The translations under genes and the position numbers were made by a program. Positions 60,126 to 64,000 of a stretch of DNA of 64,000 bases are shown here, piece after piece. Every line of letters starts with the position of its first letter. Positions within the stretch are counted from its first letter, which is position 1. The DNA comes from Escherichia phage vB_ESM-pEJ01, in the sequence record OP114734.1; one strand, given 5' to 3'. The notes under the pieces were generated by a model. The model made no database searches, was not told the DNA's origin, and worked only from the letters and a program-made list of their open reading frames with translations.

Positions 60126-60602
60126 TTATTTTTCTTGATGCTCGCGCTCGTACTTTTCGAAATAAAATTCTACTGGCTGGTCATGAATTGACAGCAAGCC
60201 AAAGCGTTTAGCCGCTCGCAATCCCATATTGCGCTGAATGTACTTCTGGAAGTTCTCGCGTATACACTTACGCCAGTATTCTAAGCCCATACAGCTTTTA
60301 TAAAGATTGCATTGCACACACGCCGGATTCATGTTATCAAGTATATCATGTTCCGGTTTATGCATTCCTACAACCTTATACTTCCACGATCCATCATCAT
60401 TACGGGCAATTCGTCCATTTTCATCATAGACTACCTTTGAGCGTCGCAATACTGGTTTGATGTGGTCTGCGTGCCAGCGATCCCCTAGTTCCTCGCCACA
60501 ATAGGCACAACGTCCACCGTATTTCATTTTCAGGATCTGGCGTTGCTCTTTCTTTGACAATTTTTTAGGTTTAGGGGCTTTCGCCCCTTCATTATCACAC
60601 AT
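60126..60602 (-). CDS. HNH endonuclease-family protein
   Basis: C-x2-C...H-A-D-H...C-x2-C (CAYCGEE, WHADHIKP, CVQCN); ATG overlaps the ligase stop by 8 nt. Confidence 0.7.
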   Translation of the reverse strand: MCDNEGAKAPKPKKLSKKEQRQILKMKYGGRCAYCGEELGDRWHADHIKPVLRRSKVVYDENGRIARNDDGSWKYKVVGMHKPEHDILDNMNPACVQCNLYKSCMGLEYWRKCIRENFQKYIQRNMGLRAAKRFGLLSIHDQPVEFYFEKYEREHQEK

Positions 60603-62091
60603 CGAATACCTCTTTTACTGTATTTGCAGTGGTCTTGTCGTAGCGAATACGTTTGATGATTGGGAGAAATAAAGAGAACTCCGGTTCATCTTCTTTACGT
60701 GATTTGCTGCGGATATACCCGTTGCATGTCATCTCAATGACTTTTCCGATCAGGTTATGCCGATCAGCCCATAACATTTCTCGGTCAAGTTCATTTCGAC
60801 GATCGAACGGAATTACACGTTCAATACCATCATCACATTTTTCGGTTGTAGTGTCGGTTAATCCCGATCCGGTGTTAGTCATCATTCGTCCGCACGCACT
60901 ACGGACAGTAAAACCGCCTACCTTATTAGGATCTTTACTATGCGGATATACATCAACAATTTCAGCGTCGAAGTCAATCACTTCTTTAAATTTAACCTGG
61001 TCTTTACTACGGCGATCTTCAAATACACCATGTAAATTTTTAAGGATAATACCTTCTAAGCCCATGTTTACATAGCGATGATATACTTCGCGAGCTTCAT
61101 CGATATTGTTAACTACAGTGTTTTCGATTATCTGAACACGAGGATCGTTAAGTTCTTCAACAATCTGTTTTAGTTCTTCGAATCGATCTTTATATTGCTT
61201 AGTTGCTTTCTCGTTTCCGTAATACACATCACGGTCGATAACATCCCAGACAGTATAAACAATACATTGGGCTTCTTCTTTTGGAATAGTTCCTTTAAGT
61301 GATTTGTTGAGGATACCATTTCCGGTCTGACGATCTGCAACAACGGATTCTTTCACTGCTTCCGCTACTGGCGTTAATGGCATTTCCTCTTCTTCAAATA
61401 TCCATGACAGAGTACCATCATAAACGCTTTCAACGAAGTTCTGCGCTGGTGTTTGCGAAAGGGTAGGCATATATACCAATTCGCCATCTAGAACAATTCC
61501 ACGGCCTCGTAGACGCTCTAAAACCGCAAACAAATCATCAAGTCCCTGATAGGTATTACCTGAACGGGTATAGATTGCTAATGTTTCCCCGTCAATATCA
61601 GCCATACCACGAGCGCCATCGCTTTTAAGTTGTGCATACGCCGGATACTTGATATTAGCAATAGTCTTATCAGAACATGACGATGCAAGGTGGCACGGCT
61701 GCTGGGGGATCAGTTTCTTCCATACCTTGTTTGCAGTGGTAGCGGAACAACCGCATTCCAGATCACGATTCAGGACCATCATTGCAACTTTAGCATCATC
61801 TTCTGACAAGCAAGTCAGAGTATCGGTAACTAGCTGTAATGCTGCGTTACCAGTTACTTGACGCGTGGCAAGTTTATTTTTAAAGACCTGTAATGCACCG
61901 GATAAAGACAATACAGACGAATAACGCGATGGTTTATCGTATTTCTTTACGCCAAACGTAACCTGTTTGCAATATGCCAGATAAAAGCATTCTTTCAGAG
62001 TTTCATTGCTTGCGGATTCTTTCAGGATCTTTTCTTTCAGCGATGTTTTGTCGGTCGCTGCAAGCTGGTTAATGATATTAAGAATTGACAT
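60595..62091 (-). CDS. 30: ATP-dependent DNA ligase gp30
   Basis: start moved to ATG at 62091 (RBS GAGGTG; track used GTG); adenylation motif KSDGAR, RDLECG and LASS motifs match T4 DNA ligase. Confidence 0.9.
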   Translation of the reverse strand: MSILNIINQLAATDKTSLKEKILKESASNETLKECFYLAYCKQVTFGVKKYDKPSRYSSVLSLSGALQVFKNKLATRQVTGNAALQLVTDTLTCLSEDDAKVAMMVLNRDLECGCSATTANKVWKKLIPQQPCHLASSCSDKTIANIKYPAYAQLKSDGARGMADIDGETLAIYTRSGNTYQGLDDLFAVLERLRGRGIVLDGELVYMPTLSQTPAQNFVESVYDGTLSWIFEEEEMPLTPVAEAVKESVVADRQTGNGILNKSLKGTIPKEEAQCIVYTVWDVIDRDVYYGNEKATKQYKDRFEELKQIVEELNDPRVQIIENTVVNNIDEAREVYHRYVNMGLEGIILKNLHGVFEDRRSKDQVKFKEVIDFDAEIVDVYPHSKDPNKVGGFTVRSACGRMMTNTGSGLTDTTTEKCDDGIERVIPFDRRNELDREMLWADRHNLIGKVIEMTCNGYIRSKSRKEDEPEFSLFLPIIKRIRYDKTTANTVKEVFDV

Positions 62092-62557
62092 TTTCACCTC
62101 GTTTTGTTAAACGTTCACGAATATCATTGAGGATACTACAAAATTCCGATTCAGTCAATATAGTCTTTAACGGATCAGTTCCACCTATGCTATGACGTAA
62201 TTTCTTATTTCCGGTAGCGAGTAATGCTTTACAAAATTCTGGGTTATTCCGTGCCATCGTAACAAATGCCAGATGTACCAGTCTGTAATAATGCTCACTC
62301 ATTCGATGAATCTGGCGACCCTGAAAATATAACAGGTGATTCTCAATCTTTTCAGTTCTTCCGGTTCTTTTTGCTTTGCCACCGTGCATCAAAAAGATTT
62401 CTCTTTGTCTCTGGGGGTTCTTAAATCTTAGCCCCTGTAAAAATCCTTCTGTGCTGTTAATATCGCAACCAAATAAACGGAATGGTCTTTTATTGAAATT
62501 ACTCAATTCACCCGATGGATAAGGTCCACCCGCATAGATATCAATTTCAGAAGTCAT
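62078..62557 (-). CDS. NADAR (YbiA-like, DUF1768) domain protein
   Basis: IYAGGPYPSGELSNF, STEGFLQGLRF and ALLATG parallel the E. coli YbiA motifs (FSNF, TSEHYFQAQKF, ALLLAT); stop overlaps the ligase start. Confidence 0.75.
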   Translation of the reverse strand: MTSEIDIYAGGPYPSGELSNFNKRPFRLFGCDINSTEGFLQGLRFKNPQRQREIFLMHGGKAKRTGRTEKIENHLLYFQGRQIHRMSEHYYRLVHLAFVTMARNNPEFCKALLATGNKKLRHSIGGTDPLKTILTESEFCSILNDIRERLTKRGENVNS

Positions 62558-62710
62558 TGAAACTAATCTCGCTAATTAGAGAGAACGGATCATAATCGTC
62601 ATTAGGAATATCGATAGTAATCGAATGAGGATTTACCCATACACCAAACTGGCCTTCTTCGGTGAATACTTCGGTATGGATTTCGTGGATGTTTACATTC
62701 ATAGTTTTCA
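62551..62710 (-). CDS. possible small protein (53 aa)
   Basis: manually found ORF MKTMNVNIHEIH...; overlaps the NADAR start by 7 nt; weak support. Confidence 0.3.
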
Positions 62711-62794
62711 TAATAAAATTTCCTTAATAATCAATAACTTACAAAATCATATAGCCAAAATATAGGCGGGATTATTTCCCGCCGTTTAAAATCA

Positions 62795-63118
62795 TTAACC
62801 GTAAACTACCACAATATTCTGTTTGTGTGTTACAGTCCATTTCAGGTCGATCTCTTCTTCCTTCTTAACGCCGTTAATAACGTCTGGATGAGGAACTTTA
62901 TTAAGTTTCCCATGAGGAAGCAATACAGTCTTGCCCAGCAATTCTTTATCAACGTTATCACCGATATCAATAATTTTACCGACTAAAGGAATCTCTCCCA
63001 TAGTTCTTTTTTGCTCGATGATAATACCAAAATCGCTCTTTACTTCTGTCCCTGCGCTTTCCGCTTTAGCTTCAATGATCACATAGTCACCAAGTGCTTT
63101 AGGAGTTTTAACGGTCAT
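62795..63118 (-). CDS. 31: GroES-like co-chaperonin gp31
   Basis: 107 aa; GDYVII...GE.P...NVPHP pattern matches T4 gp31 (GEYVIL...NVPHP). Confidence 0.75.
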   Translation of the reverse strand: MTVKTPKALGDYVIIEAKAESAGTEVKSDFGIIIEQKRTMGEIPLVGKIIDIGDNVDKELLGKTVLLPHGKLNKVPHPDVINGVKKEEEIDLKWTVTHKQNIVVVYG

Positions 63119-63154
63119 AATTTTCTTACCTCTTCAATTCATCTCAATAGTAAA

Positions 63155-63766
63155 TTATTTATATTTCGCGACCTTTGGATTTCGCCGCAGACCGGAATGT
63201 ATTTGCGCTATACAACAATAAGAAACATTAAACATATCAGCTATAATTTGCTTCTTAACTTTTCCTTTAAGCCGCATTATTTCTTCGACTTGCGCATTTG
63301 TCAGTTTTGCCCGTGAGTGGTTTTCACCGACATTGTTATTGAGTCCAGTTCTAAATGAATGTCTCATATTTTCTAGTAAGGTTACTATTTCTAGATTCCA
63401 CACATAATTGCAGGTTTTTACACCATTGATGTGATTAACCTCAAGTCCGGTAACGTCTCCTAGAAATGCATTTGCTACAAGTCGATGTATCTTTTCGGCT
63501 TTAACTGAGATTTTACCATTGTCGTTTTGTTTTGACAATGTTGAATAATAATATCCATATCGGTCTAAAATTGGTTTTATTATTTTACCAGCACGTTTTT
63601 GTTTTACGAGCTTAATATTACCGGGAGAAACTTCTCTATAAAATTCGATACTTCGGTCAATAGATCTCAACCTACCATAATTAGAGATTTCATACCACGG
63701 ATAACCTACAGCTTGTCTCCATTCTTCCGGTGCTGGTAATATGATATTATCATCTTTTGTTTCCAT
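63155..63766 (-). CDS. HNH homing endonuclease (NUMOD4 / HNH / C-terminal HTH)
   Basis: WYEISNYGRLRS (NUMOD4-like), HRLVANAFLG...EVNHINGVKT (HNH), C-terminal helix-turn-helix-like NVSYCCIAQIHSG; start moved to ATG at 63766 (track used TTG). Confidence 0.75.
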   Translation of the reverse strand: METKDDNIILPAPEEWRQAVGYPWYEISNYGRLRSIDRSIEFYREVSPGNIKLVKQKRAGKIIKPILDRYGYYYSTLSKQNDNGKISVKAEKIHRLVANAFLGDVTGLEVNHINGVKTCNYVWNLEIVTLLENMRHSFRTGLNNNVGENHSRAKLTNAQVEEIMRLKGKVKKQIIADMFNVSYCCIAQIHSGLRRNPKVAKYK

Positions 63767-63768
63767 TG

Positions 63769-64000
63769 TCAACTGCCACCGTGAATTTCGACGATCTGCG
63801 CTGGAGTCAGCCCGTCCACATTAATCAGACTATCAAGCCCAAAACTACGGAAACCTTCAACTGCAATTTCATATACTGGCAAAGATGTTTCTGATTCTTT
63901 ACGCGGTTTTTCAACATTCGGAACTAACCACTTTTCGTATGTTTCGAAAGGCATCAGTGCCGGATCTCGCGTGGCGATCATATCTCGGACAGTACCATCT
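63769..64000 (-). CDS. partial CDS (C-terminal part; 5' end lies beyond the window)
   Basis: reading frame stays open to the window edge; identity not recognised. Confidence 0.4.
   Translation of the reverse strand, partial: DGTVRDMIATRDPALMPFETYEKWLVPNVEKPRKESETSLPVYEIAVEGFRSFGLDSLINVDGLTPAQIVEIHGGS

Follow-up and report, generated by a model that had tools for sequence, protein, structure and literature searches.

A putative free-standing homing endonuclease gene beside gene 31 in some Krischvirus phages and the diverged gene 31 tract linked to it

Organisation of the gene 31 locus

The window analysed here, a stretch of 64,000 nucleotides, comes from the Krischvirus (RB49-like) phage vB_ESM-pEJ01 (OP114734.1). 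Close to its end the minus strand carries the 3′ part of gene 31.1 (63769..64000, cut by the window end), a putative homing endonuclease gene (63155..63766) and gene 31 (62795..63118), the last being followed by a terminator-like hairpin (62765..62783, minus strand) which is annotated as a terminator in phages G37-3, G2494 and G2248. The endonuclease gene, identified from the ORF list, Pfam and PHROG, is an intact ORF of 203 amino acids with an ATG at 63766 and a TAA stop at 63155-63157, these limits being identical to those given in a preliminary description of the locus. The description had also placed the gene next to gene 31, which is borne out by the product of 62795..63118. This matches PHROG 931 ('head morphogenesis', E-value 4.7e-36), shows a weak match to Cpn10 and is in synteny with the annotated gene 31 of RB49, consistent with a GroES-like head-assembly co-chaperonin. 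The upstream neighbour, 31.1, has in the window a weak match to WYL_2 (E-value 0.31) and belongs to PHROG 1086, for which a function is not given. Its labels among GenBank relatives vary between 'tail fiber protein', 'WYL domain containing protein' and hypothetical, of which 'tail fiber' seems to have been carried over from other annotations.

Alignment of 10 carriers of the endonuclease gene with 11 phages without it shows that the gene is part of a 620-bp insert (63164..63783) that is absent from the latter. The insert junctions, read by eye and then from the 21-sequence alignment, are GTCGAAATT|CACGG... and ...GCGAAA|TATAAATA on the minus strand. On that strand the empty site of non-carriers reads ...GTCGAAATT TATAAATA ATTCATC..., and the filled site of the window consists of GTCGAAATT, the insert (CACGGTGGCAGTTGACA ATG ... 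GTCGCGAAA) and TATAAATA ATTTAC.... The TATAAATA box (63156..63163, minus strand) conforms to the T4-type late promoter consensus, has just one minus-strand copy in the 64-kb window and, from that consensus, would act as the late promoter of gene 31. In non-carriers the box, 41 nt 5′ of the gene 31 ATG, coincides in part with the stop and final codons of 31.1, and in the window with the stop and final two codons of the endonuclease gene. The latter gene has taken over the ancestral TAT AAA TAA to finish its own reading frame, and the box is thereby retained in front of gene 31. It is worth mentioning that G37-3 lacks one base inside this box.

At the other end of the insert, the C-terminus of the 31.1 product is ...EIHGGS* here and ...EIYK* in non-carriers, and the TGA stop of 31.1 is situated 2 nt before the endonuclease ATG. 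An alternative TTG start for the endonuclease is found at 63772, 6 nt 5′ of the ATG, where it overlaps this stop. No good Shine-Dalgarno sequence was found at the usual distance from the ATG. Some T4 endonuclease genes have their start codon hidden by an RNA hairpin. Such an arrangement was rejected here, with the region 63720-63840 (minus strand) folding at z = 0.43, no better than shuffled sequences. Phage ELT4 has a 16-nt deletion in 31.1 approximately 180 bp upstream of the endonuclease gene (L010, 5768..6072), resulting in two annotated ORFs.

Searches against Rfam families, including group I introns, gave no match at E ≤ 1 in the region 62500-64000, and a group I intron or other RNA element at the locus was rejected on this basis. 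The endonuclease gene is a separate ORF, bounded by the stop of 31.1 and the promoter of gene 31, with nothing to indicate location in an intron or intein.

An imperfect direct repeat is present at the insert ends (63164..63173 and 63784..63793; minus strand), its two copies being GTCGAAATT, in the flank upstream of the insert, and GTCGCGAAAT, where the endonuclease gene ends. This repeat and the shared TAT AAA TAA could be what remains of the illegitimate event by which the insert first arrived, or may be due to chance. Direct and inverted repeats near the insert are otherwise short and at chance level, and no terminal inverted repeats, long direct repeats or stem-loops were found flanking it. 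A sigma-70-like promoter match (TTGACA-17 nt-TAATAT with an extended -10 TG, 10 of 12 positions) occurs at 63744..63772 on the minus strand. Created by the insert, it straddles the endonuclease start codon, and transcripts from it would lack the ATG yet enter gene 31.

These features bear on whether the insert could be a cassette acquired through recombination at PeSL elements (early promoter plus stem-loop), or through a transposon-like mechanism, as has been proposed for differences between RB49 and phi1, both of which are known to have such cassettes (PMC2839356). The sigma-70-like motif (TTGACA-17-TGnTAATAT) at the 5′ end of the insert would suit this explanation, but it lies inside coding sequence and may be there by chance, as the scan found nine such sites against 6.8 expected. 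In addition, the insert has no flanking stem-loop, G/C-tract hairpin, terminal inverted repeat or long direct repeat, and its empty site is a late-promoter box with no PeSL. As no repeat flanks the insert, ends of the transposon or PeSL type were rejected; the insert does not resemble the PeSL cassettes of RB49 and phi1, and an origin of this kind is considered highly improbable.

Further downstream, 62078..62557 (minus strand) encodes gp30.3 (Pfam Phage_30_3, E-value 9.5e-38), with a weak match to NADAR (E-value 0.009) that falls under the cut-off. A second and unrelated HNH ORF of 158 amino acids is located at 60126..60602 (minus strand; Pfam HNH PF01844, E-value 5e-6; PHROG 2118, E-value 8e-55), where it shares 8 nt with the 3′ end of gene 30, which encodes DNA ligase. 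This ORF (RB49ORF212c) was found in all fetched Krischvirus loci that reach that far, in carriers and non-carriers of the gene 31 endonuclease gene, and so behaves as a fixed gene, unlike the latter.

Predicted domain structure of the endonuclease

The preliminary description had proposed that the protein combines a NUMOD4-like N-terminus, an HNH core and a C-terminal helix-turn-helix (HTH)-like tail, with failure of domain searches to back the first two named beforehand as what would count against it. Both were upheld by Pfam, in which membership means a score over the curated gathering threshold. The NUMOD4 match (PF07463, E-value 2.2e-11, 44.2 bits against a cut-off of 23.4) takes in profile positions 1-48 of 49 and corresponds to amino acids 14-77 (63536..63727, minus strand), within what the model strands and the alignment with I-HmuI indicate to be an N-terminal beta-sheet module; the motif WYEISNYGRLRS is found here at amino acids 24-35. 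The HNH_3 match (PF13392, E-value 8e-9, 35.4 bits against a cut-off of 24.8) takes in profile positions 2-46 of 46 and corresponds to amino acids 92-135 (63362..63493, minus strand). The ORF also matches PHROG 59, 'HNH endonuclease', with an E-value of 1.9e-35. No paralogues of the gene were found within the 64-kb window.

In an alignment of the endonuclease with 16 homologues from a large protein database, each of which possesses NUMOD4 and HNH_3, the residues H94, N111, H112, N120, N124 and N133 are invariant among all 17 sequences. The pair N111-H112 aligns with D74-H75 of I-HmuI and N133 aligns with N96, these I-HmuI residues being what we take to be the metal-ligand and general-base residues. 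By comparison with the homologues and I-HmuI, the hallmark of HNH nucleases, namely a catalytic histidine and a metal-ligand asparagine or aspartate, appears to be present in the protein.

A Pfam search with the C-terminal 63 amino acids gave nothing meaningful, and the proposed HTH is consequently a reading of predicted structure. The AlphaFold2 model of the protein (mean pLDDT 80.6) consists of beta strands at amino acids 16-92, a beta-beta-alpha unit at 93-140, a poorly predicted linker and helices at 157-190. The last of these form a predicted three-helix bundle (63197..63298, minus strand) with helices at 157-166, 172-179 and 183-190 and a pLDDT of 82-91. In local Foldseek searches the bundle matches HTH DNA-binding domains, for example that of DeoR (7bhy; probability 0.98, rmsd 1.4 Å over 36 columns), in agreement with the tail that had been proposed.

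The intron-encoded endonuclease I-HmuI (1U3E) is the sole PDB sequence match to the protein (E-value 1.3e-3) and also the sole significant PDB fold match, over its full length (Foldseek E-value 1.3e-6, probability 1.0, 198 columns), with the NUMOD4 region of the model aligning to the N-terminal domain of I-HmuI. The TM-score of the model against 1U3E is low, at 0.45-0.52, and the rmsd is 10.5 Å; this is to be expected of an elongated multi-domain protein modelled without DNA, as domain orientations may differ. The protein is thus predicted to have the architecture of I-HmuI, comprising, from the N-terminus, a NUMOD4 module of beta-sheet for DNA binding, an HNH_3 nuclease of the beta-beta-alpha-metal type, a helical linker and, at the C-terminus, an HTH.

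Distribution of the gene and its linked tract

A 2-kb query around the gene matched 59 phage records, all of them Krischvirus coliphages and Shigella phages. The insert is present in 11 of these GenBank records (nine distinct phages), which cover the whole query at 97.5-98.5% identity. In the remaining 48 the match is broken into two parts, the endonuclease gene being cleanly absent between them. Carriers span four ICTV species, namely ecd7, kfsec, gec3s (E26) and RB49 (PHB13), of which two also have non-carriers, with the type phages RB49 and GEC-3S being without the gene. Comparison of the gene 31 neighbourhood in related phages, which had been suggested as a check in the preliminary description, therefore showed that the gene is either present (11 of 59 records) or cleanly absent at a single fixed position between genes, in a pattern that is incongruent with relatedness and accompanied by a linked flank on one side.

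The window protein is 100% identical to the copy in G2494, and copies of 98-99% identity annotated as 'HNH homing endonuclease' are found in ECD7 (HNH_2, ASJ80305.1; 99%), E26 (QHB48812.1) and ELT4 (UNY41536.1). Beyond the Krischvirus gene 31 group, the best relatives are only 34-45% identical; the protein database has one cluster at 98% and nothing at 45%-98% identity. The ECD7 copy is the only one in IMG/VR, and in JGI metagenomes no sequence was found to match the pattern at the start of gene 31 exactly. One contig of the Logan assembly was identified as a further carrier, having a 96.9%-identical copy in the same context and with the same linked allele.

The linked allele was revealed by a scan of approximately 7.3 kb of aligned sequence from 10 carriers (the window and nine phages) and 11 non-carriers, a linked difference being a position at which carriers and non-carriers differ nearly completely. 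All 43 linked differences fall within approximately 260 bp (270 alignment columns; 62903..63152) on the gene 31 side of the insert, and none was found on the 31.1/cd side or elsewhere in the 7.3 kb. This tract comprises the 31.1/31 intergenic region and gene 31 codons 1-72, and its core, in perfect linkage and fixed in all genomes examined, is 63008..63152. Divergence between the two groups in the tract is 15.4%, with only 0.9% within carriers, whereas each other 300-bp block has a divergence of 1-5% that is equal between and within groups. The nearest neighbour of a carrier is another carrier in 10 of 10 cases for the tract, in 0 of 10 for the adjacent 300 bp of 31.1, and in 0-6 of 8-10 elsewhere, so that outside the tract carriers are shuffled among non-carriers. 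In the census, a 270-bp tract query matched the 11 carriers at 97-99% identity and the 48 non-carriers at 82-92%. The tract has stayed attached to the endonuclease gene while the surrounding DNA was reshuffled, and this is indirect evidence of co-conversion at the level of the population, with linkage perfect across the 59 records, as distinct from one obtained in a cross.

Within gene 31, pS between the two allele types is 0.49-0.66 for codons 1-72 and 0-0.05 for codons 73-107, compared with 0.10 for the ligase gene, and the allele types differ by just five amino acids. Given the difference in pS between the two parts of the gene, the 5′ two-thirds of gene 31 in carriers would so appear to derive from a much more distant, unsampled lineage, making the gene mosaic in these phages. 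Two non-carriers, UPWr_E1 (L015; 62903..62987) and JK32 (L017; 62903..62930), possess the carrier-type allele in the distal tract only, which indicates recombination breakpoints inside gene 31 and a mosaic gene 31 in the population. It should be mentioned that the tract alleles are 15% diverged with a longest identical run of 38 bp, and the perfect linkage may thus partly reflect suppressed recombination. The distal tract boundary and the insertion junction are common to all carriers, which one import with ordinary recombination thereafter could also produce, and which means that independent homing events are not countable; the sampled carrier sequences are also closely related and do not represent independent observations.

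This common boundary and single junction lend themselves to the explanation that the insert is an immobile passenger, having been acquired a single time, along with the diverged gene 31 segment, through a recombination event (ordinary or illegitimate) with a divergent phage, its patchiness being due to recombination and loss with no self-spread at present. The imperfect direct repeat of GTCGAAATT and GTCGCGAAAT flanking the insert would fit this explanation, as would the highly mosaic nature of Krischvirus genomes in general (PMC2839356, and the nearest-neighbour counts above). Moreover, two of the 11 endonuclease copies are frameshifted, that of G37-3 (L003, 7160..7764) by loss of one T in a run of five and that of FL20 (L004, 7155..7767) by gain of one A; the element may really be decaying in these phages, or the shifts may be sequencing errors in homopolymers.

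Against an immobile passenger stands the conservation of the protein. Two allele groups of the endonuclease gene can be distinguished, one consisting of the window, ECD7, G2494, KFS-EC, E26, PHB13 and ELT4 and the other of phiS and the Logan contig. Between them pS is approximately 0.12 and pN approximately 0.006-0.008, giving a pN/pS of 0.05-0.07, and the HNH core has no amino acid change. To judge from these substitutions the gene is under strong purifying selection, whereas a functionless passenger should decay. Linkage that is perfect on one side, with the other flank fully shuffled, also fits selection through self-cleavage and not neutral hitch-hiking. On balance, the passenger explanation is regarded as unlikely.

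Homing interpretation and comparison with known systems

The Pfam domains, the match to I-HmuI, the polymorphism in 11 of 59 records, the one-sided linked tract, the purifying selection and the low GC content of the gene (35.1%, compared with 40.6% for the window) are together in favour of what the preliminary description had suggested from sequence, namely a free-standing homing endonuclease. The gene is considered likely to be of this kind, with I-HmuI architecture, having entered some Krischvirus phages between 31.1 and the gene 31 late promoter.

Enzymes of the free-standing type cleave DNA some way from where their own gene is inserted, with co-conversion of flanking markers (PMC2988022). 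When two phages infect together, the gene 31 enzyme would nick or cut the allele without the gene, the likely cut site being in the 31.1/31 intergenic region or the first approximately 37 codons of gene 31, equivalent to 63008..63152 of the window. Recombinational repair would then copy the 620-bp insert, along with the DNA between insert and cut, from the carrier genome. The diverged stretch in carriers is presumably resistant to cleavage, and for this reason insert and stretch would stay together amid recombination: a genome parting the gene from the resistant site would cut itself. Such self-cutting would account for the restriction of perfect linkage to the side of the target, and this reasoning places the target in the non-carrier equivalent of 63008..63152. 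The linked tract, in other words, probably holds the cleavage-resistant form of the target site. Two candidates for the target can be put forward, the first being the intergenic stretch from the promoter box to the ribosome-binding site, with 14 differences including a 6-nt indel, and the second being codons ~17-37 of gene 31, in part of which nine differences are crowded into 22 bp. It is from these comparisons that we infer the protein to be an active enzyme, the target to lie where stated and the linked allele to be resistant.

A further possibility is that the nuclease is kept for the benefit of the phage and is not purely selfish, serving as a weapon against co-infecting relatives (marker or partial exclusion) or in DNA processing. 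The homing endonucleases of T-even and SPO1-like phages do exclude the markers of competitors (PMC2988022), the presumed target region here takes in essential gene 31, and purifying selection has acted over an appreciable divergence. However, repeated homing cycles alone also predict such selection, 48 of the 59 relatives do well without the gene, two carriers have frameshifted copies, and no sequence feature separates benefit from selfish drive. A role of this type is judged rather improbable.

More speculatively, and with doubts outweighing confidence, the endonuclease and the diverged 5′ two-thirds of gene 31 may constitute a two-part drive cassette of nuclease and resistant target, one that is actively sweeping through Krischvirus and excluding the gene 31 alleles of competitors. 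The cut would then be made approximately 12-165 bp from the insertion, within or just upstream of gene 31. If this were true, the locus would be a natural and still-running marker-exclusion system in a cytosine-DNA T4-like phage, and could be used to study how an enzyme of the I-HmuI type, probably nicking, triggers recombination.

The records of ECD7, E26 and ELT4 already label the gene as an HNH homing endonuclease, and this homology-level annotation is confirmed here. With near-identical genes already so labelled in public records, the case is an ordinary one and its importance is limited. No publication describing the gene 31 endonuclease locus was found in a literature search. What is added is comparative, namely a sharp, one-sided block of approximately 260 bp that is perfectly linked to the endonuclease gene and has near-saturated synonymous divergence within essential gene 31. 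The block narrows the probable target site to approximately 145 bp, a prediction that is directly testable. The mechanism of free-standing HNH endonucleases that nick is still poorly understood (PMC2988022), and the same-species pairs of carrier and non-carrier (PHB13 and RB49; E26 and GEC-3S) would be convenient material for its study. For phage-therapy cocktails containing Krischvirus phages, the element would represent one route for the exchange of DNA around gene 31 between co-infecting phages.

Among known genes, the closest are the Krischvirus orthologues in ECD7, E26, ELT4 and G37-3 (in the last labelled 'protein with NUMOD4 motif'), which are 98-100% identical, have the same position and flanks and do not differ in substance from the window gene; their labels are homology-based only. 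Other NUMOD4-HNH_3 genes labelled as homing endonucleases occur in Krischvirus phages TB34, KMB43, Cognac, Whisky and SAP. These share the Pfam architecture but are approximately 34% identical and are situated near record position 11 kb or 98 kb, not at gene 31.

In phage T4, the Seg proteins are GIY-YIG enzymes, and MobA and MobE nick DNA. To our knowledge, the gene 31 locus on the T4 map has no endonuclease gene. Similarity of the window protein to T4 MobE, the Mob protein used for comparison, is not significant (BLASTP E-value 0.82), and MobE matches Pfam HNH PF01844 instead of NUMOD4 and HNH_3; on this comparison with MobE, membership of the T4 Mob family was rejected. What the gene has in common with the T4 Seg family and MobA-E is its lifestyle, being a separate ORF between conserved T4-like genes with a sporadic presence in close relatives. 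The linked flanking tract likewise fits a cut site distant from the insertion, as in the Seg/Mob systems (PMC2988022).

The closest characterised relative is I-HmuI, an HNH enzyme of Bacillus phage SPO1 and a nickase (PMC2988022), with which the endonuclease shares domain order, fold and HNH signature residues at an identity of only approximately 22%. The two differ at the first metal-ligand position, which is N111 here and D74 in I-HmuI, and the window protein has extra insertions at amino acids 1-12, ~45-60 and ~80-90. They also differ in setting, as I-HmuI is encoded by a group I intron lying within a gene for DNA polymerase, whereas the gene described here is free-standing between two protein genes.
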